From IMG/VR virus record IMGVR_UViG_2541047124_000005, positions 1 to 10,475 of that record: a DNA stretch of 10,475 nt; one strand, written 5' to 3'. The notes under the pieces were generated by a model that was not told the DNA's origin, searched no databases, and worked only from the letters and a program-made list of their open reading frames with translations. Source of the DNA: a virus. Lineage: Duplodnaviria; Heunggongvirae; Uroviricota; Caudoviricetes. Of this stretch, positions 1 to 10,475 are shown piece after piece. Positions within the stretch are counted from its first letter, which is position 1; the number at the start of each line of letters is the position of its first letter. The translations under genes were made by a program, and so were the position numbers.

Positions 1-82
1 CATAAGCATCACCCTTGCCGTTGTAAACCCACAGAGTGGTACCGGCACCTTTTACCGGCTCAAGGGGATTTGGTGTTGCCAT
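1..82 (-). CDS. V: major tail protein V, N-terminal 27 codons only (gene continues past the left edge of the window)
   Basis: Minus-strand translation from ATG at 82..80 gives [27 protein letters not shown], which closely matches the lambda gpV N-terminus as I recall it ([27 protein letters not shown]). It sits 7 nt downstream of the gpU-like stop, consistent with lambda order Z-U-V. Absent from the ORF track because it is truncated by the window edge. Confidence 0.75.
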
Positions 83-89
83 ATCGTCC

Positions 90-488
90 TCACATCTCGT
101 AGGTAATTTTCCACAGGAGATCTGCCGATCCCCACATCATAAACTCATCATCCCGGCGGTAGTCATACCCCTGAAGATTCATCTTCAGCAGTAATGCACT
201 GAGCCCGGGAACTGCCTCCAGCGCAGGAAGAATTTTTTCTTCCATCCACATATCCAGTGCCGAGTCCGGTTCTTTTGCCCTGAGAAAAACCTCAATATGC
301 AGTGTCGCCTCCCAGGTTCCCTCATCAACGAACTCGTCAGCAGCAGACGCATCTGTCAGGTAAACAGCAACAGCAGGCAGTTCCTGTTCATCAATAAAAA
401 CCGGGCGACCGTCAAACCAGCTCACCCTCTCAGAAATATTTTCTTTCAGGGCAGACAGAACTGCCGCCCGTATTTCACGGTGTTTCAT
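90..488 (-). CDS. U: tail terminator protein (lambda gpU family)
   Basis: 132-aa [20 protein letters not shown]...[26 protein letters not shown] aligns along its length with lambda gpU as recalled (MKHTELRAAVLDALEKH...GYDYRRDD...ITYEM). A GGGAGG Shine-Dalgarno lies 4-5 nt upstream of the ATG at 488. Position between Z and V homologs is as expected. Confidence 0.9.
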
Positions 489-500
489 ACACCCTCCCAG

Positions 501-1130
501 TCATTTTCTTTTCAGCACCAGGCGTAACTGATGCGTCATGGCTTTCATCATCTGCGCCGGTAATTTTTCCCGGTACATCCGGTCCCGTTCACGTTCAAAG
601 GTTTCTGCCAGCGGTCCGGCAGTCGTAATCTTCACCACTTCGATCGGCAGACGGTGGCGTTTCGGCCTCCCTTTGCTGTCCGCGCCGGTGGATGATGATG
701 CCCACGGCATACGCTGCATCACATGCCAGCGTCCGTTAGCCAGCCGGGTGATAAAGGCGTCCGGGATCCGTCTTTTCCCCACAATCAGCACACTGCCGCC
801 CCCTTTCAGGGCCGCACGCTGTCCTTTCTTTCTCCGTTTTCTGCGGGAAAGTCGAACGCGGGCCTCCCCCAGTTTGATGGCGGGCAGGTTGCCGGTATTG
901 ATGTAAACCTTTGCGTAAACCTTATCCGGTCGTGCCGGACTTAACCGGATGCGGGCACGGATAAGACGACGGGGAACGGCCAGCTCCCTGGCAACTGAAG
1001 AGGCCGTTTTCGCAATAATGGCCCCCGCCACTCGGTTCAGTGTCATGGCAGAGGCCCGGGGAACGGCACGGCGATCAATTGCATCCAGATTTTTCATGGC
1101 CTGCGCCAGACCTTTTATTGCCATACTCAT
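501..1130 (-). CDS. Z: tail completion protein (lambda gpZ family); true start is probably the third codon (ATG at 1124)
   Basis: ORF MSMAIKGLAQAMKNLD...LSRRKRRKKGQRAALKGGGSVLIVGKRRIPDAFITRLANGRWHVMQR... matches lambda gpZ as recalled (MAIKGLEQAV...LSRRRRRKKGQRSSLKGGGSVLVVGNRRIPGAFIQQLKNGRWHVMQR). The first ATG overlaps the upstream stop (ATGA); the ATG at 1124 has AGGAA at better spacing and matches the lambda start MAIKG. Confidence 0.9.
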   Translation of the reverse strand: MSMAIKGLAQAMKNLDAIDRRAVPRASAMTLNRVAGAIIAKTASSVARELAVPRRLIRARIRLSPARPDKVYAKVYINTGNLPAIKLGEARVRLSRRKRRKKGQRAALKGGGSVLIVGKRRIPDAFITRLANGRWHVMQRMPWASSSTGADSKGRPKRHRLPIEVVKITTAGPLAETFERERDRMYREKLPAQMMKAMTHQLRLVLKRK

Positions 1131-1408
1131 TCCTGTTCGACAAAAATCCGGGGTTTACCGTTGTACGTGTCATAACGGGTCACCGTCAGTGTGCGCCCCG
1201 CAAACACAACAACATCATGACGGGCCGGACGGTACCGGGCTGAAAACACCACCAGTGACAACTGGCTGCCCGAAAGCGCCCCCATCTCCGCGGACTCTTC
1301 CTCCGGCATCACGTCGTACACGACGCCGTTAATCTCCGCCTGTTTGCCCATCACCCGAACGGTCGCCACGTCCATCCGGCAACACATTCGCGTAAACAGA
1401 TCAGACAT
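1127..1408 (-). CDS. head-tail joining protein, FII-like (putative)
   Basis: 93-aa ORF in the position lambda gpFII occupies (just upstream of Z). Weak but consistent pattern similarity to lambda gpFII as recalled (DLF near the N-terminus, a GV-F/Y-D-PEE block, and an SL-VF block). Overlaps the upstream gene by 8 nt (ATGTCTGA), typical of translational coupling. Confidence 0.55.
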   Translation of the reverse strand: MSDLFTRMCCRMDVATVRVMGKQAEINGVVYDVMPEEESAEMGALSGSQLSLVVFSARYRPARHDVVVFAGRTLTVTRYDTYNGKPRIFVEQE

Positions 1409-1727
1409 TGATTTTTACCGCCACAGTGGCGCTGTTTGCAGGGGCATTTTCCCAGGCTACCCCCGCTGCCACCGCACCGTCTGCAGCCAGCTGCACAACC
1501 CCGTCCTTCAGATAAACCACCGCGCCGGACTGAATGTCGTCAGCAGACTGTTTGGGCAGCAGGAACACGCCTTCGGCAAAACCGTCACCGGCCTCACCGG
1601 CAGGAATATCGGTAATGGCCACGGCCACCATACTGCCGACCACCACCGCAGCACCGCTCAGGATGGTCTGATCTCCGGCATTCACCAGTTCAATGGTGGT
1701 ACCGTCCTGTACAAAATTTTTCGCCAT
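1401..1727 (-). CDS. small Ala/Gly/Val-rich head protein, DUF2190-like (putative capsid decoration or cement protein)
   Basis: 108-aa ORF MAKNFVQDGTTIELVNAGDQTILSGAAVVVGSMVAVAITDIPAGEAGDG... lies directly downstream of the major capsid gene. Its composition and MAKN-type N-terminus resemble the small DUF2190-family proteins that follow capsid genes in many lambdoid prophages, as I recall them. GGAG lies about 10 nt upstream of the ATG. Confidence 0.5.
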   Translation of the reverse strand: MAKNFVQDGTTIELVNAGDQTILSGAAVVVGSMVAVAITDIPAGEAGDGFAEGVFLLPKQSADDIQSGAVVYLKDGVVQLAADGAVAAGVAWENAPANSATVAVKINV

Positions 1728-1768
1728 AATGCTGTTTCTCCGGACAGCCCCTGTGGGGCTGTTTTTCA

Positions 1769-1792
1769 GGCATAAAAAAAGCCCTTTCGGGC
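1769..1792 (-). terminator. candidate intrinsic terminator immediately downstream of the capsid gene
   Basis: On the minus strand: GCCC-GAAA-GGGC (4-bp GC stem with GAAA tetraloop, plus 1781..1792) followed directly by a U7 tract (plus A7 at 1774..1780). Located 23 nt after the capsid stop at 1815. Short stem, so probably a partial terminator. Confidence 0.4.
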
Positions 1793-1814
1793 AGTGATTG
1801 TGATAACGCGGTTA

Positions 1815-3770
1815 TCAGGCCACCGACGAACGCACCAGCCCGCGCCAGTCAAGTGGTGCCACTCCGGCATCAATACGGATTTTTGTGGCAATGCCGTCAG
1901 TGGTGAAACCTTCCTGCTGATCAATGTATGGCGTGTCCACACCATCCAGCCAGGCCACTTCAATGGTGTCAGTGCCCTGTGCCGCCGCCAGATACCAGGT
2001 TTTCGGGTCTGCCGCATCAAGACGCGCTTCTGCAATCACCTCAGCAAAGTTCTGGATAGGGTTAATGACACCGGCGTTTGCATCCGCCCCTTTCACACTG
2101 GCCGATTTGATGGTCTGGTTCGCCACCGTCTCCAGTGCCACCGGTACCAGCATAAAGGCCGGACGGATATTCAGGGCACGATCGCCTTCTTTCTGCAGGC
2201 GCATCATCTGACGGGCCGCATCCAGTCCGGAAACGGAGATCCCCCCGGTGGCAATATTTTTGTGATCGGCATGGAACAGCGCCTTACCGTCGGACAGTTT
2301 CGGGTTATCCGTCAGCACCTTGTAGACCAGGTCACCAATCGTTGCCTTCGCCGCACGCCCCATCTTCATCGGCACGTCCACCAGCATATTCAGATCATCA
2401 TTGATAATGGCCTGGCGGGTGATGGAGAAAATCTCCCCGTAAGTGGCCAGTGCAATGGTCTCCTTGCGATCTGAGGTGGTGATGTATTTATACTCCGCCC
2501 CCTCACGAACCTGGCGCAGAGAACCAAAACCGCCCATCCCCACGCGATACGCTGTTTTGAAGTCTGACAGGCGTCCCTTACGGGTCCACTTCTGGAAGGT
2601 TTCTTCTGATTCCTCCCAGCCCTGGATCAGCCCCTTGTTCGACACATCCAGCAGAATATTGCCAAAATCAGAGGTGCTGTGCGTCAGCGCCAGCCCGACC
2701 ATCTGCATGGGGTTATAACTGGCCACCCCAATACCGCGCTCCGTCAGTGACATGCGAGCCCATTCACGCAGGGTCATCCCGTTATAGGCGTTATCCTTCT
2801 CGACATTTTCAAATCCGGCACGGGCCAGCATCGCCTGGCGGATCCCGTCCCCCACAAAATTGCCGTTTCCGGCATAAATATGGGCCGGTGTATTTTTGTT
2901 GGTCGGCGAGGACTCCTTGCCCATTTCATTCAGCAGTCGTTCACGGGCCATTTCCAGCGAACAGTCAGGATCAGCCACGCACTGTGCCTGAAGCGTCTGA
3001 TAGCGACCGCCGAACATGGCAAACAGATCGTTAATGCCTGACATGCGGGCTTTCTGTTCTGCCATAACGCGGGCGCGAATGGTCGCCTCATCAGACACTG
3101 CCGGTACCGGTGATGGTTCTGTTACCGCCGGTGCAGGGATTGTCACTGTGGTATCACGCGGGGCACTGTTGCGTGGCGGAGTAATCATGTTTCGGATGGA
3201 TTCCGGCATCTTTTTAAATTCCTCTGTACGTTTTGACTGAATACATGCCATTGCCTCAACGGCGGGTGTCACCTGGTCAGCAAATCCGTGTGCCAGACAT
3301 TCGGCACCGGACATCCAGGTCTCATCCGCCAGCATGGCAGCAATTTCATCGGTGGTTTTCCCGGTTTTCTGTGCATAAGCGGGTAACAGAACCGCCTCAA
3401 CTTTATCGAGCAGGTCGGCATAGGTGCGCATGTCCTCCGCATCACCGCCCGTAAAGCCAAATGGTTTATGAATCATCATGAAGGAGTTTTCCGGCATAAT
3501 GACCGGTTTTCCCACCATCGCAATGACCGACGCCATTGACGCCGCCACACCGTCGACATAAACGGTAATGGACGCACCATGTGTTTTCAGTGCATTAAAA
3601 ATGGCGATGCCTTCAAAGACATCGCCACCCGGTGAATTGATATTGAGATTAATGTGGGTGATATCGCCCAGTGCATTCAGATCACTGATAAACTGCTTCG
3701 CTGTAACACCCCAGAAACCAATCTCGTCATAAATATAAATATCCGCGTCACTCTGGTGACCAGCCTGCAT
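1815..3770 (-). CDS. prohead protease (ClpP/S14-like) fused to major capsid protein
   Basis: One long ORF. The N-terminal region carries a ClpP-like serine protease fold, including a GVAASMAS block (ClpP-type active-site Ser context) and a downstream MIHKP His. A Pro/Ala-rich linker follows (PAPAVTEPSPVPAV), then a roughly 400-aa C-terminal region typical of phage major head proteins. The track ORF begins at 4031, but I place the start at ATG 3770..3768 (MQAGHQSDADIYIYDEIG...), 13 nt after the portal stop, because the upstream 87 codons overlap the portal gene. Confidence 0.85.
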   Translation of the reverse strand: MQAGHQSDADIYIYDEIGFWGVTAKQFISDLNALGDITHINLNINSPGGDVFEGIAIFNALKTHGASITVYVDGVAASMASVIAMVGKPVIMPENSFMMIHKPFGFTGGDAEDMRTYADLLDKVEAVLLPAYAQKTGKTTDEIAAMLADETWMSGAECLAHGFADQVTPAVEAMACIQSKRTEEFKKMPESIRNMITPPRNSAPRDTTVTIPAPAVTEPSPVPAVSDEATIRARVMAEQKARMSGINDLFAMFGGRYQTLQAQCVADPDCSLEMARERLLNEMGKESSPTNKNTPAHIYAGNGNFVGDGIRQAMLARAGFENVEKDNAYNGMTLREWARMSLTERGIGVASYNPMQMVGLALTHSTSDFGNILLDVSNKGLIQGWEESEETFQKWTRKGRLSDFKTAYRVGMGGFGSLRQVREGAEYKYITTSDRKETIALATYGEIFSITRQAIINDDLNMLVDVPMKMGRAAKATIGDLVYKVLTDNPKLSDGKALFHADHKNIATGGISVSGLDAARQMMRLQKEGDRALNIRPAFMLVPVALETVANQTIKSASVKGADANAGVINPIQNFAEVIAEARLDAADPKTWYLAAAQGTDTIEVAWLDGVDTPYIDQQEGFTTDGIATKIRIDAGVAPLDWRGLVRSSVA

Positions 3771-3783
3771 CCTGAACCAGGAA

Positions 3784-5293
3784 TTATTCTTCGGACTGGT
3801 CGTCGGTGTGCTGCGGCTCCTGTCGTTTCGTTGCGGCACTGCTGCCTCCTTTATCACTGGCCGGATCGGTATCAAATACCAGATCCAGCTTGCGGTTTTC
3901 ATCAATTTCGGCCTTGCGCCGACGTTTGACATCATCCGGATTACGACCACCTGCACGTACCCAGTCTGATTCTGTCGCTGCTCCACCACGAATCTGAATT
4001 TTCCAGGCCTCAGCCTCCTTAACAGGGTCAATCCACGGCATCACCGGTCCGGAATACACCGCGGTATACAGTGAAGAACGGTCAAGATCGCGGGGTAGCC
4101 TGATAACACCGGATGCCACAGCCTGTTTCAGCCAGGCACGATACATCGGGCGGGTGACGGCACCAATAAACCAGTCCTGCAGGATCAGGTAGCCATCAGT
4201 GGATTCAACCAGCTCCTGACGCTGGGCGCTGTAAGTGCCGTTATAGTTGCGCGCTGTACTGGAAAAAATTCAGACGACTGCCCGCCGCCACGGCACGCAA
4301 CTGACCATTACGAAAAGTTTCAAGGTTAGGATTGGGGCGATCCGACTTCACCATTCCGATTTCTTCGCCGGGTTTCAGATCGTCGTAAATAATGCCTGGC
4401 TGAATGGTAAGCTCGCGTTCCTTATCCTTGCTGCCATTACCATCCGGTTCATAGCTCTGCCCATCGCCTTTCCGGATGTACATCCCCAGAGCAGCGGCGA
4501 TCCTTGCTGCAGTCAGCTCAGAATCCTCATACTCTTTCAGGGCACTGAGGCGGATCAGCACACCGGACAACAAAGACGTCCCGCGCATCTGGTGCAGACG
4601 GCGAACAAATTTAAGATGCAGCATTCGCTCTGCATCCACTTCTTTGGTTTCCATCTGCCGTCCGGATACGGGACGGCTTTTATACACCAGATATTTTTCG
4701 GGACGCCCCCAGTCATCAACAAACACGCCCTGATTCAGCCTGTTGCTCTCATCACTGGTCATGGGAATAAAGTCTGGCTCGAGCGCCTCCAGCCAGAAAT
4801 GAACACCGGCAGAAGGCGTCAGGCTGTTTATGCGCCCGGAAACCATCTGGGCAAACACCTCACCATCGCGCAGCCAGGTACGCAGCATCAGACGTTCCAG
4901 CATCGGACGGGTAAACTGCCCGGTGACTTCCGGACTGACAGACCATTCACTCCATCGGGTGCGTATCTCCGCTGCCAGATCACGGGCAATGGCCCCATTG
5001 CGTAATACCGGATGTGGCTCGACAATAATCCCGTTTTTCCCCACCACCCGTTCTTCCAGCTTGTCAAATACACCAATAACCAGATCGTGGTTGTTATCAA
5101 GGTAACGGGCCTGCTCACGTAACGACACGGCCCCGTACTGGCTTAACTGGTCGGCAGTTCGGTTTTCCCGCCGGGCTTTGTGTGTCCGCGTCGTTTTTAC
5201 GGCCTCATAAGCCTGGATCACCGCACGGGAACGCAGCCTTGCCGCTTTCCATCCTGGTGAAAAAACGCCAATCACATCATCAAGAATTGCCAT
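3784..5293 (-). pseudogene. portal protein (lambda gpB family), reading frame interrupted by an apparent +1 insertion in a homopolymer run (A6 on plus strand at 4263..4268); genuine inactivation versus sequencing error cannot be decided from sequence
   Basis: Two consecutive track ORFs (4241..5365, 374 aa, and 3784..4146, 120 aa) are in different frames. The upstream frame ends ...AVAAGSRLNFFQYSAQL*. Deleting one T from the T6 run on the gene strand gives ...RLNFSSTARNYNGTYSAQRQELVES... and runs continuously into the downstream ORF, giving a protein of about 502 aa. The restored junction resembles the corresponding lambda gpB segment as I recall it (...SYEQLSRNYAQMSYSTARAS...). Start placed at ATG 5293..5291 (MAILDDVIG...), overlapping the gpW stop as TGATG. 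Confidence 0.8.
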
Positions 5294-5505
5294 CAGAACC
5301 TCGCCAGCCGGTACCCGGGATGCCCCCGTCGTCGTGTAATCAGAGCCGCAAGGCGGCGCTCCCACTCCTGCCGTCCCTGCCGGATCTCAGATAAGTTTTC
5401 CATGGTCATCTGCTGACCATTAAAGGTGACGGATTTTCCGTCCAGCACCGCCATTTCAGCTTCCGTATAACGCTGAATCATGGCTTCGATATCATTCTGG
5501 TTCAT
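5293..5505 (-). CDS. W: head-tail joining / head completion protein (lambda gpW family)
   Basis: Small ORF between terL and portal, as in lambda (A-W-B). The C-terminus ...ITRRRGHPGYRLARF resembles the lambda gpW C-terminus as recalled (...QRRRGPAGFYV). Start chosen at the third codon (ATG 5505..5503, protein MNQNDIEAM...) because GGAGG lies 6 nt upstream of it; the track start at 5511 abuts the SD. Confidence 0.7.
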   Translation of the reverse strand: MNQNDIEAMIQRYTEAEMAVLDGKSVTFNGQQMTMENLSEIRQGRQEWERRLAALITRRRGHPGYRLARF

Positions 5506-7604
5506 AACCATCCTCCGGAAGTCAGCCAGGGGTTAACATCGTCAGTTACTGTTTTCTTCCGTTTTTGTTTTTTAACAGGCGTGGATACCGGTTCCGGTGA
5601 GGGTGACGGTTCGGTACTGTCCGGGACACTCTCCAGCCAGGTTTCCCGGCTCGCCCACCCCGGTGCATCCGGCCAGCGGATCTTTTCGTATCCATGCAGA
5701 ATGACCAGAGCCTCGGCATACACCATCAGGTCAAAAGCTTCGTTGGCACCGCGACCCGGCTTACTCCATTTCCCGTCACTACTCCGCTCTTCATACGTCA
5801 GTTCGTCGTAAAACCAGCTCCCCAGCCAGTCAGGGAAATGCACATAGCCGGGACCTGGAGAGTCACGCCATAACGCGTTATTCACCCGGTCTTTCAGTGC
5901 ATCCGTCTGAAGAAGCCAGAGCGGCACATCACCTGCGGCCTGCGCCCGTCGGCCCGTTCGTCCGGTGTTATCAGGGAATGTACGGGTGATCAGTTTTGCG
6001 CGCCGGATGCTGTCGCCCTTAAACAGGTAAATACGTTTACCAAGGCCATCACGACGGCAACGACGCCAGAATTTATAGGCATTATCAGTGACCCCGTCTT
6101 CACCGCCGGAGTCCACCGCCATTGCCATCAGTCGCATTTGTTGAGAAGGATCGGAGGCCAGCGGCCAGCTTTTATGAAAAACATCCGTCAGCAGGACATC
6201 CCAGTCTTCCGGATAGCTGGCCGGATCAATTCGCTGGCTCTCACCGTCGCTGTCACCGCGCAATGACTGCGTGATGTTGTAACGATCAATAATCCAGCGT
6301 TCGCCACGGCTGCCATAGCCCGTTACCTGAACCACAAAACGGCGATGACGTCCCGCCTGCACATCCACTGTCGCCACAAGGAAATTAACGCCATCCGGCA
6401 CACTGCTGGAAGGAACTGGCTCTGCCCGCTGCTCAAGCAGTTCACTTTTTCGTTGCTCCATGCTGGCGCGGGGAAGATAAGGTAATCCCCAGTCGGTATT
6501 GATAACCGTCTTGAGTGTTTCTTCACTTCCGGTTGTCTCGTATTCCTGTTCTGCAGTAAGCAGTTTGTAAACGAGTTGCGAGAGTGTCTGGTAAGCAGCT
6601 GCCGGACCCTCCATCCAGAATGACGCAATACGTGAGCGTCGGGGATCACCATAACGACTACCATCCGCATTGATGGATTCACCATCCCGCAACCAGACCC
6701 CACGTCCGTTCAGCTCACGTTTTTGTTCAGGCATAATCCGTCCTGAACAGGAAGGACACTGAATATAAGCCGCCTCACTTGCCAGCACGGGATCGGCAAT
6801 ATCACGGAAACCAGCAACCACATCGCCGCAGGGCTGAAAATACTCACCACAGTGTGGACAGGGCCAGTACCAGCGACGGCGATCGCCACGGTTATAGAGC
6901 GACAGTATCCCCGTGGTTGGTGGAGCCTCATGCGGTGAAGTCCGTCGCCATTTCACATCCTTCACATCCCTGCCGGGGGAACTCTCCACCAGCGTCATAC
7001 CACTGGACATAAATGTGGTGGTACGTTTTGAGGCAAGAGAGAAGGCATCCCCCTCGCCATCAATATCTTCCGGAAAACGGTCATAATCCGTCAGCGCCAC
7101 GCATTTATAATCTGATGAGGACATGATATTGACTGACGGCCAGCCGATTTTCAGGTAGTTGCCAGCAAGGAATGTTCTGTCATAAACGTTGTTGTCATTT
7201 TTGTTCGGACTCAGGCGACTGACCACTTCCGGGCTGACGCGAAACGTTCTGGCGAGTCGTTTTTTGGAGTGTTCGCGGGCTTTTTCCTCCGTCATCTGAA
7301 TGATCAGCATATCCGCAGGATCGCAAATCACGTTGTAAATCACCCAGCCGTCAATCAGGCCGATAGTCTTGCCGGTTCGTGCCGGGCCAACAAATATCAC
7401 TGCGTCGTATTCACGCGAGGCCAGGCAGTTCATCGGCTCAATAACATACGGTGCCACCAGCGGATCCCACGGGACTGAGTTCCCGGCCCCCATGGGCACC
7501 CGCATATACTGAGCAACGGCATCAGCAACCCGCATTCGTCTCGGTGCGCGAAGGATATAACCTGAATCGGTTCGTGCTGCCTTTGCGGTTTCCTGATTCA
7601 GCAT
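5502..7604 (-). CDS. A: terminase large subunit (lambda gpA family)
   Basis: 700-aa ORF with a Walker A motif VGPARTGKT (about nt 7365..7388) and a CPHCGE motif matching the ACPHCGE block of lambda gpA. Further blocks resemble gpA as recalled (...WIIDRYNI... versus SWLIDRQII; AFDLMVYAEAL versus ALDCFVYALAAL). The start ATG overlaps the terS stop (TAATG) and is preceded by GGAGGAG. Confidence 0.95.
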   Translation of the reverse strand: MLNQETAKAARTDSGYILRAPRRMRVADAVAQYMRVPMGAGNSVPWDPLVAPYVIEPMNCLASREYDAVIFVGPARTGKTIGLIDGWVIYNVICDPADMLIIQMTEEKAREHSKKRLARTFRVSPEVVSRLSPNKNDNNVYDRTFLAGNYLKIGWPSVNIMSSSDYKCVALTDYDRFPEDIDGEGDAFSLASKRTTTFMSSGMTLVESSPGRDVKDVKWRRTSPHEAPPTTGILSLYNRGDRRRWYWPCPHCGEYFQPCGDVVAGFRDIADPVLASEAAYIQCPSCSGRIMPEQKRELNGRGVWLRDGESINADGSRYGDPRRSRIASFWMEGPAAAYQTLSQLVYKLLTAEQEYETTGSEETLKTVINTDWGLPYLPRASMEQRKSELLEQRAEPVPSSSVPDGVNFLVATVDVQAGRHRRFVVQVTGYGSRGERWIIDRYNITQSLRGDSDGESQRIDPASYPEDWDVLLTDVFHKSWPLASDPSQQMRLMAMAVDSGGEDGVTDNAYKFWRRCRRDGLGKRIYLFKGDSIRRAKLITRTFPDNTGRTGRRAQAAGDVPLWLLQTDALKDRVNNALWRDSPGPGYVHFPDWLGSWFYDELTYEERSSDGKWSKPGRGANEAFDLMVYAEALVILHGYEKIRWPDAPGWASRETWLESVPDSTEPSPSPEPVSTPVKKQKRKKTVTDDVNPWLTSGGWL

Positions 7605-8095
7605 TACTCCTCCTGCTGTAATTCCTCCTCATCATCCGCACCTGCTTCGGTCACCCGCAGGGCTATCTGATCGCGCAGATCATCAATAATGGACTGAACA
7701 CGGCTCACAGCGGCAGGCTGCAGACCACAGTCACGTTCCAGAATATCCGGTAATGTCTCCAGCACCTGCACGACCGCTTTTGCCCAGATGGCAAACTCCC
7801 GTCTGACATCACTGGCCGGAATGAGTTGTGCCGTTTCCTGTTCGAACTTAAGACGCTCACGTTCAGACTGATACCAGGCTTTGCGTTCATGTGGATCCAT
7901 TTCGCCCTCAGCAACCGGCGGTGGTAACCCCATAAATTCAGTCAGAATATCGGTCAACCGGTATAGCTTGAGTTTGTCATGTCCACCAGCGGGACGAATG
8001 TTTTTCAGTCTTGCCACGACAGTCTGGCGGTGCAGACCAGATAAAGCCGCCAGTTGATTAATATTCAGCACCAGGTTTTTCAACTCATGATCCAT
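7604..8095 (-). CDS. terminase small subunit (Nu1-like, N-terminal HTH DNA-binding domain)
   Basis: 163-aa ORF immediately upstream of, and overlapping, terL. N-terminal LNINQLAALSGLHRQTVVARLKN is a helix-turn-helix-like segment as in Nu1-type small terminases; the C-terminus is acidic (DDEEELQQEE). GGAGG lies 4-5 nt upstream of the ATG at 8095. The candidate cos site lies about 180-200 bp upstream, the same spacing as in lambda. Confidence 0.8.
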   Translation of the reverse strand: MDHELKNLVLNINQLAALSGLHRQTVVARLKNIRPAGGHDKLKLYRLTDILTEFMGLPPPVAEGEMDPHERKAWYQSERERLKFEQETAQLIPASDVRREFAIWAKAVVQVLETLPDILERDCGLQPAAVSRVQSIIDDLRDQIALRVTEAGADDEEELQQEE

Positions 8096-8104
8096 ATTTC
8101 CTCC

Positions 8105-8300
8105 GGAGAGCTTTAAACATGCATCGTGCGAACAACTTTAAGAAAACGCGTTCGATGTCGAACAAAAAACACTCAATTCGACATACAAAAAACAAATAAC
8201 CATTAATAATCAATAAGATGCAAAGATGATGGTGGCCGATAAAAATGCAAAAACTAGCCTTTTTCCGCGACGCTCCCGCCCCGTGGCAGGCCACCCCACC
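8105..8300 (-). other. candidate cos site: cosN-like GC-rich core (plus 8265..8286) plus AT-rich cosB-like region with TCGA-containing repeats (plus 8110..8200)
   Basis: On the gene strand the sequence reads ...CCTCCCGGTGGGGTGGCCTGCCACG GGGCGGGAGCGT CGCGGAAAAAGG..., which parallels the lambda cos junction as I recall it (...TTTCCGGTGATCCGACAGGTTACG GGGCGGCGACCT CGCGGGTTTTCGC...). The 12-mer GGGCGGGAGCGT (plus 8270..8281) differs from the lambda cohesive end at 4 positions. Between it and terS lies an AT-rich stretch with A-tracts and repeated TTCGA/TCGAAC motifs (8126..8136, 8150..8163, 8177..8193), including the palindrome GTTCGA-TG-TCGAAC, plausibly terS-binding R elements. Confidence 0.45.
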
Positions 8301-8703
8301 GGGAGGAGCCGTCAGCCTGAAAGCCATGACGAACGTCTGATACAGCCCTTGCATGAATGGCATCGGGATAATCCAGAAAGGAATAGCATCGACCCACAAG
8401 AATCTGTGTGAGTGTCCTGTTTCTTCCACCCCCGCACAGGACTGGCGAGCATGAGGGACAAACCCGCGAATCATTAGCGCGGTAAAAACCCGGTGTGCAT
8501 CGTTTTTGATTATTCCCGCACACTCGCGCAGAAGGAGTTCCCCGTCGGGCTACGGTCATGGTTAATGCGGGAATACAGCGACGATACAGCGCATGATGTG
8601 TCAGGCTTGAATACCTTTATCCGTTAAAAGGGATATCAGTTAAGTTATCCCGTGTAGGGTATAAGCCATTATCAAGCCCACCAGTAGATGGGCTTTGTAA
8701 TGG

Positions 8704-8961
8704 CTACTTCGCTTTTGCTTCCGCTCGCTTACGCCGGCGCTCTTCTTTCCTCTCGGCTTTTGCCATGTCCATGAATGCCTGCATGATCGAGTTCCGCATC
8801 ATGTAGCTAACAAAGTGATGATTGACACAGCCGTTGAGGCGCAGCTGCTCGCCAAACTCATCCACCGAGGCCAATGCTTCCATCATACCCTTCTCGCCTT
8901 TCATGAACTCTGAGAAGTCGCGCCCCGCTCTGGAGGCGCATTCAATGACACGATCACTCAT
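8704..8961 (-). CDS. hypothetical small protein (85 aa), or frameshifted C-terminal part of the upstream KilA-N-like gene
   Basis: ORF MSDRVIECASRAGRDFSEFMKGEKGMM...AKAERKEERRRKRAEAKAK with a highly charged Lys/Arg/Glu-rich C-terminus. Its ATG (8961..8959) overlaps the stop of the upstream ORF as ATGA. No family recognised with confidence. Confidence 0.4.
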   Translation of the reverse strand: MSDRVIECASRAGRDFSEFMKGEKGMMEALASVDEFGEQLRLNGCVNHHFVSYMMRNSIMQAFMDMAKAERKEERRRKRAEAKAK

Positions 8962-9455
8962 CCCGGAAGCCCGGGGATCGAAATCTGCAACTGGTTAGCC
9001 AGGGAGTTAATTTCAGCGATCAAACCAGGTTTCGTGTAGCGCCATGCCGCGAGGCCTTGTCCACAGAAGCTCGCCATGTCTTTTTTCTGATCAAACTCAT
9101 GACATTTCATGTTGAGCTGCGCACTTAAGCTGTTCCGATGATGAAGCTCTCCGGTGAAGTAATCATCGAGGACTTTATAGGCTGCATATTTAAATCCGGG
9201 GTTTAGCCATGCTGCGTAATCATAAGCAACGAACTTTCCGCCATAAGTTCCACCGTGCGCACCGCGTTCCGTAAAAACCACAGATTCGTGGTTTTTCTCC
9301 AGCTCAGCCAAGAACTCTTTGGTCTGCTTGTTTCGCAGGTAGTGGTACGGAGATTCAGATTCACTTTTACCACTGGCTTTCCACATATCAGTGAGGCAGA
9401 TCATGCCATCTTCACCGATACGGATTGGTTGATTGAAGAGGGTTAATGATTTCAT
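8958..9455 (-). CDS. KilA-N domain-like protein (accessory gene between the lysis cassette and cos)
   Basis: 165-aa ORF MKSLTLFNQPIRIGEDGMICLTDMWKASGKSESESPYHYLRNKQTKEFLAELEK...GGTYGGKFVAYDYAAWLNPGF... The pattern (segment ending in G-x-I/Y, then L-T/N-D-hydrophobic-x-K-A-x-GK, then W/YLR-x-x-x-T-x-EF, then a G-T-W/Y-hydrophobic...A-x-W-x-x-P-x-F block) matches my recollection of the KilA-N/APSES-type domain. AGG lies 8 nt upstream of the ATG. Confidence 0.5.
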   Translation of the reverse strand: MKSLTLFNQPIRIGEDGMICLTDMWKASGKSESESPYHYLRNKQTKEFLAELEKNHESVVFTERGAHGGTYGGKFVAYDYAAWLNPGFKYAAYKVLDDYFTGELHHRNSLSAQLNMKCHEFDQKKDMASFCGQGLAAWRYTKPGLIAEINSLANQLQISIPGLPG

Positions 9456-9570
9456 AGCGTGTACCTACTCTTTGAAATGAACCTTTGCCGCACAGGAAAC
9501 CAGCCCACCGAGGCTCGCCAGCACTAACTGGTATCCTCAAAGGCCCATTCCAAAGGGGCAGGTTCGGTGT

Positions 9571-9597
9571 AAAAAACATGCGTTGCGGTACGCATTT
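9571..9597 (-). terminator. candidate intrinsic terminator (second of two tandem terminators downstream of Rz)
   Basis: Minus-strand RNA: AUGCGU-ACCGCA-ACGCAU (6-bp stem from plus 9578..9583 and 9590..9595, 6-nt loop) followed by G and a U6 tract (plus A6 at 9571..9576). Confidence 0.4.
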
Positions 9598-9600
9598 ATT

Positions 9601-9625
9601 GCAAAAAGCCCCGCATCGCGAGGCT
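9601..9625 (-). terminator. candidate intrinsic terminator (first of two, about 33 nt downstream of the Rz stop)
   Basis: Minus-strand RNA: AGCCUCGC-GAU-GCGGGGCU (8-bp stem including one G-U pair, 3-nt loop) followed by UUUUUGC (plus aaaaa at 9603..9607). Confidence 0.5.
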
Positions 9626-9657
9626 CATTAAATGGACTTTGTGATTTGCAAAAAAAA

Positions 9658-10095
9658 TTATTTCAGGCATTGCGTCCTGATGTACTCCTGCAGGTAGTTA
9701 ACCTGCGCGGTTATCTTGTCGATTCCACCTCGGAGACGGTAATAATTGAGTTCAGCATCTGCTGTAAGTCCTGGGCTTTCTCCATCGCCCATGCTGCTGG
9801 CTCCGGTCGTTGACTTTGCACAGGTGGCGGAGACTTGCAGGCGCTTACGCCCAGCAGAAACATCAGCACGGAGACTTTCGATAGTCGCATTAGCATCAGC
9901 AAGCTCCTTTGTGTATCTGGCGTCAAGTTCTGCTACATCACGTTGCCGCTTCTGCATATCAGCGATGATGGATGTGGCTTTATCGCGCTGCTCTTTGTAG
10001 GCGATGGCGTTATCACGGTAATGATTAACAGCCCATGACAGGCAGGCGATAATGCAGATAACCAGAGCGGAGATAATAACGGTTACCCTGCTCAT
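9658..10095 (-). CDS. Rz: i-spanin Rz (inner-membrane spanin subunit)
   Basis: Translation from ATG 10095..10093 gives [39 protein letters not shown]..., near-identical at the N-terminus to lambda Rz as recalled ([39 protein letters not shown]...). N-terminal TM segment followed by a charged coiled-coil-like region. The track start at 10107 is a GTG with no room for an SD; the ATG at 10095 is preceded by GGGGG at 5 nt and overlaps the endolysin stop (ATGA). Confidence 0.9.
9711..9896 (-). CDS. Rz1: o-spanin Rz1 (outer-membrane lipoprotein), entirely embedded in the +1 frame of Rz
   Basis: Track ORF 9711..9926 lies wholly within Rz in another frame. From the internal Met at 9896 the product is [20 protein letters not shown]|[16 protein letters not shown]...: short basic n-region, hydrophobic core, lipobox-like VSAC, then a Pro-rich mature region as in lambda Rz1. 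Exact start (9896, 9890 or 9926) is uncertain. Confidence 0.7.
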
Positions 10096-10475
10096 TGTTG
10101 CCCCCACAAACAGACTTCACGCTCAATCTCGCGGCGAGTCATCAGCCCTTTCCATTGCTTACCGCCAGCGTATGTCCAGCGCCGTAGCTGATCACATGCG
10201 CCTTTGATATCGCCCTGGTTTATTTTGCGAAGAAGCGTCGATGTTCTGAAATTGCCAGCGCCCACGTTGTAAACGAACGAGTAAAGAGCGCCGCGCGTTG
10301 TTTCCGGTATATCGACGTTGATGTACGGGTTAATTTGTCTGGCGACCGTGGCAAGGTCTTTATTCAGGAGGGCTTTGCATTCTGCTTCGGTATACGTTTT
10401 ACCGGGAATGATGTCTTTTCCGGTGTGTCCGTGACATACAGTCCATACGCCAACGATATCTTTGTATGGTATGTA
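10092..10475 (-). CDS. endolysin, phage lysozyme type (GH24, T4 lysozyme / P21 R family); C-terminal 127 codons only, 5' end beyond the right edge of the window
   Basis: Minus-strand translation from the window edge is open for 127 codons to TGA at 10094..10092: [127 protein letters not shown]. The G[11 protein letters not shown] block and overall layout match the phage lysozyme family (compare P22 gp19 TIGVGHTGK). Not in the ORF track because no start codon lies within the window. Confidence 0.85.

Follow-up and report, generated by a model that had tools for sequence, protein, structure and literature searches.

Genomic context of the two genes

We analyzed a 10,475-nt window of a tailed-phage record (Caudoviricetes; IMG/VR record IMGVR_UViG_2541047124_000005, positions 1 to 10,475) and focused on two genes on its minus strand. 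Gene 1 (8958..9455, minus) is complete and encodes a 165-aa protein with a KilA-N and an ORF11CD3 domain, as defined by the open reading frame (ORF) list, Pfam, and PHROG matches. Gene 2 (8704..8961, minus) encodes an 85-aa protein of PHROG 875 (ORF list and PHROG). As had been noted from the sequence, the two ORFs overlap in an ATGA stop/start, read on the coding strand, such that the four bases 8958-8961 (minus) are common to both.

Upstream of the pair, on the same strand, are the lysis genes: a lysozyme gene, placed upstream of Rz by gene order, that runs past the end of the window; the Rz i-spanin gene (9658..10107, minus; ORF list and Pfam Phage_lysis, PF03245, E = 1.1e-34); and Rz1 (9711..9926, minus), which is embedded in Rz. 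The lysis cassette ends with Rz, which is the directly upstream neighbor of the pair; a gap of 202 nt separates Rz from gene 1. Downstream of gene 2, approximately 600 nt contain no convincing genes. They are followed by a DUF1441 small-terminase-like gene (7604..8095), a 700-aa ORF (5502..7604) that we read as the large terminase, and, further downstream, portal and protease/capsid genes, all on the minus strand. The original prediction had placed a same-strand pair between the lysis cassette and cos. Gene order confirms a same-strand pair downstream of Rz/Rz1 and upstream of the terminase genes; a search for a lambda-type cosN gave no match better than chance, and the position relative to cos is a likely one based on gene order. 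The GC content across the two genes is 0.46-0.54, like that of the neighboring genes, and an Rfam scan of the whole window gave zero matches.

The sequence from 8600 to 9660 is 100% identical to that of Stx2-converting phage 1717, phage 2851, and several other Stx phages. In these identical phage records, the two genes are annotated as "kilA" or "KilA-N domain-containing protein" and as "putative bacteriophage protein" or "hypothetical protein." Matches are also present in 625 of 5426 complete E. coli genomes (~11%), with Shiga-toxin prophages among them, and the PGAP labels in E. coli genomes are "KilA-N domain-containing protein" and "hypothetical protein." The two-gene feature is thus an ordinary one, and GenBank, RefSeq, and PHROGs already carry it with this description. 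Our search of the literature found no experiment or functional study on either protein.

Sequence and predicted structure of the encoded proteins

The KilA-N-like pattern originally read from the translation of gene 1 was borne out by a profile search. Pfam KilA-N (PF04383) matches residues 9-101 with a score well above the cut-off (58.4 bits versus 23.8; E = 7.4e-16), covering model positions 8-106 of 107. A second domain, ORF11CD3 (PF10549), matches residues 109-161 (47.5 bits; cut-off, 25; E = 2.1e-12). This model is matched in full, from position 1 to position 54 of 54, and the domain ends 4 residues before the stop codon. The corresponding coding parts are ~9153..9431 for KilA-N and ~8973..9131 for ORF11CD3 (both minus; Pfam). 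Gene 1 also matches PHROG 129 and PHROG 10441, and its ORF11CD3 region matches the Rha-like PHROG 518. Full-length homologues of the gene 1 protein are 164-189 aa long, with identity down to 46-50% (e.g., in Erwinia phage phiEt88). The N and C termini are kept in 18 homologues, and the C terminus, QLQIxIPGLxx, is common to full-length homologues down to the lowest of these identities.

Structure models were made for both products. The AlphaFold model of the gene 1 protein (pLDDT, 82) consists of an alpha/beta N-domain, with strands plus helices, and a predicted long, antiparallel helical hairpin (residues 86-130 and 132-156) that corresponds to ORF11CD3. ORF11CD3 is probably an oligomerization or interaction module. 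Foldseek matched the model to the APSES-type proteins Bqt4 and Mbp1 at a probability of 0.14-0.75 with nonsignificant E values (0.2-0.9); DdrC was also a weak, nonsignificant match. KilA-N and APSES domains are reportedly related, and the weak resemblance of the N-domain model to the fungal APSES/Bqt4 proteins is consistent with such a relationship. Searching the PDB with sequence profiles of the gene 1 and gene 2 proteins yielded no relative among solved structures, and NCBIfam has no family for either protein.

The gene 2 protein covers the whole 85-position profile of PHROG 875 with its full length (residues 1-85; profile positions 1-85; E = 3.2e-54). Its database homologues (n = 138) are almost all 83-87 aa long and stand alone. 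Compared with seven homologues at 54-86% identity, gene 2 has a dN/dS of 0.04-0.28, and the substitutions pile up at third codon positions. We conclude from these two observations that gene 2 is a real gene under purifying selection rather than a chance ORF. The family is very narrow: an exhaustive HMMER search of 1.8 billion representatives returned only 21 matches, all of them close relatives or fragments, and all from Enterobacterales phages or prophages. Hence, there is no remote homologue in that set to lend gene 2 a function.

The AlphaFold model of the gene 2 protein (pLDDT, 93.7) is a three-helix bundle with helices at residues 3-20, 26-42, and 48-84, and fold searches with this model returned generic helical bundles only. 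The charged tail described earlier is present, the C terminus being KAERKEERRRKRAEAKAK, and the third helix bears a conserved basic patch, EERRRKR (coding part, ~8707..8760, minus). The EERRRKRAEAK tail resembles arginine-rich RNA-binding motifs such as that of lambda N, although this likeness is speculative. We also considered whether Cys8, Cys45, and His48/49 might make up a zinc site but dropped the idea because Cys8 is replaced in the protein P0178.

Candidate signals for transcription and translation

Two terminator-like hairpins follow Rz on the minus strand. The first (9601..9626, minus; RNA fold) has the form GAGCCUCGC-GAU-GCGGGGCUU followed by a U run, and it falls within an Rz mosaic block, common to mEp234 and HK022, that extends down to 9603. 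The second (9568..9595, minus; terminator scan and RNA fold) has the form AUGCGU-ACCGCA-ACGCAU followed by GUUUUUU. A crude consensus scan of the coding strand, which a weak promoter may escape, revealed no sigma-70-like promoter between the second hairpin and the ATG of gene 1 at 9455. From the two hairpins and the lack of a recognizable promoter of its own, we infer that transcription of the cassette would start at the late promoter and reach the two genes through Q-antiterminated read-through.

There is no well-placed Shine-Dalgarno sequence for gene 2, which suggests that this gene may be translated by termination-reinitiation at the ATGA junction or, in the loci described below that have a short spacer, at a TGAnnATG junction. 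All of the data fit the alternative to a broken gene that had been offered, namely, two translationally coupled genes that form an accessory unit of the late operon.

A strong interrupted hairpin lies over the stop codon of gene 2 (8664..8705, minus; RNA fold). Its predicted folding energy is -27.4 kcal/mol (z = -5.05), and none of 200 shuffled sequences was equally stable. It is uncertain whether this hairpin acts as a terminator; the U tract (UUAUACCC) is weak. The hairpin marks the right-hand edge of a mosaic block.

Pairing of gene 2 homologues with KilA-N genes

We assembled a set of 255 loci drawn from phage records, IMG/VR, and genomes; 239 of these contain the 85-aa gene. A KilA-N gene is directly upstream in ~230 of the 239 (~96%), and there are two types. 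In ~137 loci, the upstream gene encodes KilA-N and ORF11CD3 and overlaps the 85-aa gene by 4 nt (ATGA). In ~93 loci, including those of mEp234 (gp58), HK022, and Klebsiella phages, it encodes a protein of 242-284 aa with KilA-N and P63C domains and is separated from the 85-aa gene by a spacer of 1-2 nt (TGAnnATG). Identity between the KilA-N domains of one type and those of the other is only 24-27%, whereas the 85-aa proteins beside them are 85-98% identical. The pair follows the spanin genes in ~145 loci and is located inside the tail gene clusters of Klebsiella-type phages in ~63 loci; its downstream neighbors vary widely. PhiR55_1 has its packaging module and Rz in common with the window and lacks the cassette, which supports the original description of the genes as nonstructural cargo. 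Together, the two late-operon positions, the two KilA-N partners, and the absence from some phages indicate a mobile two-gene accessory cassette. Judged from sequence comparison, the fact that PHROG 875 is regularly paired with two distant lineages of KilA-N appears to be a modest new point. Our main reading, to which we assign a probability of about 0.85, is that two intact, separately conserved genes form an accessory cassette of lambdoid phages, here in the late operon of an Stx-type prophage, and are not a broken gene.

Either gene can also be found without its partner. In seven loci, one of them in an isolated phage, the KilA-N gene is intact and the 85-aa gene is cut to 10-22 codons; in two others, the 85-aa gene is intact and the KilA-N gene is deleted or split by a nonsense codon. 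HK97 gp61 is a frameshifted 77-aa version of the 85-aa protein. Among more distant KilA-N+ORF11CD3 genes in the slot between Rz and terminase, we found no 85-aa partner, and the small ORFs that follow such genes in Cronobacter and on a phiEt88-like contig from Erwinia are, by inspection, unrelated to the 85-aa protein.

That either gene occurs alone is a point in favor of the alternative that the two have independent functions. In this alternative, the 85-aa gene and the hairpin would be a conserved mosaic block (8946..8667) adjoining a recombination hotspot at which KilA-N genes are swapped, and the upstream gene would be needed only for translation. The homology breakpoints are as this alternative predicts. 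Homology of the window to mEp234 and HK022 runs through Rz to 9603, picks up again at 8946, 15 nt into the 85-aa gene, and ends at 8667; the same end, which coincides with the end of the strong hairpin, is seen in 40 loci. In a further locus (L010), nucleotide homology likewise begins 15 nt into the 85-aa gene and stops at the hairpin. The 85-aa protein also does not covary with the type of its partner. That the same protein occurs beside KilA-N domains of ~25% identity, with different C-terminal domains, argues against a tightly coevolved protein-protein interface. However, if there were no functional link, it would be hard to account for a KilA-N neighbor in nearly all loci, at two genome positions and across several genera, and the exceptions to the pairing are visibly decayed derivatives of the pair. 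We therefore consider independence of the two genes to be improbable, though by no means negligible, and retain the linked accessory cassette as the preferred reading.

Comparison with known systems and possible functions

KilA-N and ORF11CD3 are both listed in the "Bro network" of phages and satellites, in which domains are swapped and several members are regulators (PMC10111431). The gene 1 protein has the same domains, above the Pfam cut-offs, as HK620 hkbK, "kilA" of phage 2851, and PHROG 129, with the same N-terminal KilA-N domain and with deposited sequences that are identical or nearly so. Domain swapping is seen here too, since ORF11CD3 and P63C (PF10546) occupy the same slot. We found no structural difference from the family; the pairing with PHROG 875 was not found in the family description.

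The cassette occupies the same slot, between Rz and the packaging genes, as lambda bor and the P22 rha region, and it shows the same presence/absence polymorphism among phages with common flanking modules. The match of ORF11CD3 to a Rha-like PHROG is a further likeness to the P22 region. Lambda bor is on the opposite strand and has its own promoter. In contrast, the cassette genes run in the same direction as the late operon, our scan detected no promoter for them, and their GC content is not distinctive. The cassette also differs from the genes of the bor/rha slot in being found inside tail gene clusters. With respect to the traits of a moron, the cassette is extra DNA between genes that are adjacent in a relative (PhiR55_1), with discrete homology breakpoints. 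Its base composition does not depart from that of its flanks, and as for a promoter and terminator of its own, we found no sigma-70 consensus match and a downstream hairpin that is strong but has a poor U tract.

The cassette is best read as encoding a late DNA-binding "Bro-network" protein and a translationally coupled partner. The gene 1 protein would be expressed late and would probably be oligomeric via its helical hairpin; the gene 2 protein would be a small, basic-tailed helical protein made together with it. The two products may act late in infection in a DNA-directed regulatory or nucleoid-targeting role, on which lysis, packaging, and assembly would not depend. KilA-N/Bro-type proteins rank among the most common phage proteins that lack a known function, and the existence of a conserved partner gives experiments on them a simple starting point.

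A more specific proposal, which we regard as quite doubtful at present, is that the PHROG 875 protein is a dedicated, interchangeable small subunit for late KilA-N ("Bro-network") proteins. The pair would then be a two-component DNA- or RNA-targeting module in which KilA-N binds the target and the three-helix protein is the common effector or adaptor. If this is true, the effector could have a role in, for example, competition with coresident prophages or satellites, or in late counter-defense, and the proposal would give the first functional handle on a very widespread class of uncharacterized phage proteins.

P1 KilA kills cells, and the tight two-gene linkage and stop/start coupling are what one would expect of a toxin/antidote-like or abortive-infection (defense) pair, in which the KilA-N protein would be the toxic effector and the 85-aa protein would neutralize or regulate it. 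BstA, another KilA-N-type protein, is ~300 aa long, is encoded next to the repressor locus, and has a different C-terminal domain. It is a prophage defense protein, a single two-domain protein headed by a KilA-N-like putative DNA-binding domain (PMC8585504). The gene 1 protein is likewise prophage encoded with a putative DNA-binding domain of this type, but it differs from BstA in architecture, being 165 aa long with ORF11CD3 and encoded in the late operon with a small downstream partner. PADLOC gave a weak partial match of the KilA-N core of gene 1 to the defense candidate PDC-S22 (E = 1e-8) and no match to any named system; a QatB match was at chance level and was rejected. The distribution of the genes argues against an antidote. 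An essential antidote should persist, yet the small gene is the one lost first in several otherwise intact loci, and the distant KilA-N+ORF11CD3 genes occur without a partner. In addition, no promoter was found from which the pair could be expressed on its own in a lysogen. We conclude that a toxin/antidote or defense pair is distinctly unlikely and that a late DNA-binding protein with a coupled partner remains the better description.

The junction between gene 1 and gene 2

The useful results were mostly negative: no frameshift, no pseudogene, and no recoding. KilA-N domains are usually N-terminal in longer proteins (Pfam), as they are also said to be in earlier published work, and the original prediction had suggested that the two ORFs might be one gene of ~250 aa. 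In that case, an ancestral KilA-N gene would have been split by a frameshift, or by a sequencing error, within the 36 nt before the ATG of gene 2. The ATGA overlap allows for such an event, and the nearest upstream in-frame stop in the second frame is, as predicted, only 12 codons before the ATG (8997..8995), leaving merely 12 sense codons there. However, this idea loses its premise: gene 1 already contains, in complete form, the C-terminal partner domain that would be expected to follow KilA-N, and the C terminus of gene 1 is kept in all full-length homologues. The predicted single proteins of ~250 aa did not appear. Instead, the homologues consistently show two separate genes conserved at these lengths, an outcome that had been named in advance as refuting a split, and no fusion of KilA-N to the 85-aa sequence was present among the 138 and 56 homologues found. 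Longer database entries proved to be read-throughs into downstream DNA, deletions, an Rz chimera, or over-extended N-terminal starts.

One protein from a single contig (P0001, 123 aa) does carry the 85-aa sequence fused to the last part of ORF11CD3, and it reflects a real frameshift. Against this single case, the same ATGA junction is present in more than 130 ORF11CD3-type loci, as well as in complete genomes that number in the hundreds and come from independent projects, and P63C-type partners join the same 85-aa gene through a different junction. A split ancestral gene is therefore extremely improbable, and the two ORFs are read as two intact genes.

Equally little probability attaches to a programmed -1 ribosomal frameshift at CCCCGGG that would add a KilA-N-ORF11CD3-85aa fusion to the two products: the 85-aa ORF lies in the -1 frame with respect to gene 1 and the C/G run lies within the 12-codon open stretch, but C_CCC_GGG does not fit the canonical X_XXY_YYZ pattern of a slippery heptamer, the run is missing from the P63C-type junctions, where the frame relation is also different, and the local RNA fold at the junction is unremarkable (z = -0.42). 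The CCCC/GGG run corresponds to Pro-Gly codons in gene 1 and is not kept in the Klebsiella homologue of the ORF11CD3 type (ATCCCTGGCTTGCAGCCATGA).

Presence and absence of the KilA-N cassette

Escherichia phage PhiR55_1 (locus 7396-9170) has the DUF1441/TerL/portal packaging module and Rz as in the window, without the cassette formed by the 165-aa KilA-N gene (9455..8958, minus strand) and the 85-aa small gene (8961..8704). Only short hypothetical ORFs were found in the gap at the cassette position. The window and PhiR55_1 represent a clean presence/absence polymorphism for the KilA-N cassette.

The homology breakpoint found most often is a very stable hairpin on the minus strand at 8664-8705 (z = -5.05), which overlaps the 85-aa ORF at its stop codon; homology stops at 8667 in 40 loci. 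The related region in compared locus L002 is 2760-3041. In mEp234, HK022, and HK620, this hairpin is followed by a 160-220 bp insert, and behind the insert lies a second hairpin, distinct from the first, whose 3′ flank is that of window positions 8701..8616. On the Rz side, two tandem terminator-like hairpins, each with a U run, occupy 9568-9626 on the minus strand, directly 3′ of the Rz stop codon. The first of these is part of the Rz mosaic block, which the window has in common with mEp234 and HK022 as far as 9603. A terminator scan detected 6 terminator-like sites in the 2.1-kb region (2.1 expected).

Upstream of the DUF1441 small-terminase-like gene, an AT-rich stretch at 8000-8370 (GC, 0.40) with strong AT skew is a candidate location for cos or a packaging site. 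A sequence search found no lambda-type cosN.

Other locations and decayed forms

In Klebsiella phages, the cassette is located within the tail gene cluster. In Klebsiella phage ST11-VIM1phi8.1 (1743-4868 of the compared locus), it adjoins two genes of the Arc family as well as a Bro-N protein; this layout recalls the P22 immI (arc/ant) region.

Decay of the pair was seen in both directions among the compared loci. The small gene is intact next to a KilA-N gene that has been deleted or split by a nonsense mutation in L161 (2941-3252) and L233 (2453-3264). Conversely, the KilA-N gene is intact and the small gene is cut to 10-22 codons in L171-L176 (around 3001) and L101 (1471-2066); loci of this second form include an isolated phage filed under Actinobacillus.

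Contig JARKOR010000234.1, deposited under a "Candidatus Nanosynbacter" MAG, has a copy of the small gene with 99% identity, adjoining a KilA-N ORF shortened to 146 aa; the contig is almost certainly a binning contaminant originating from an enterobacterial prophage. The 139-aa ENA protein P0004 is a chimera in which the 85-aa protein is joined to the Rz C terminus at RRKR codons common to both, and is probably either an assembly artifact or a recombinant of the nearby 85-aa and Rz genes.
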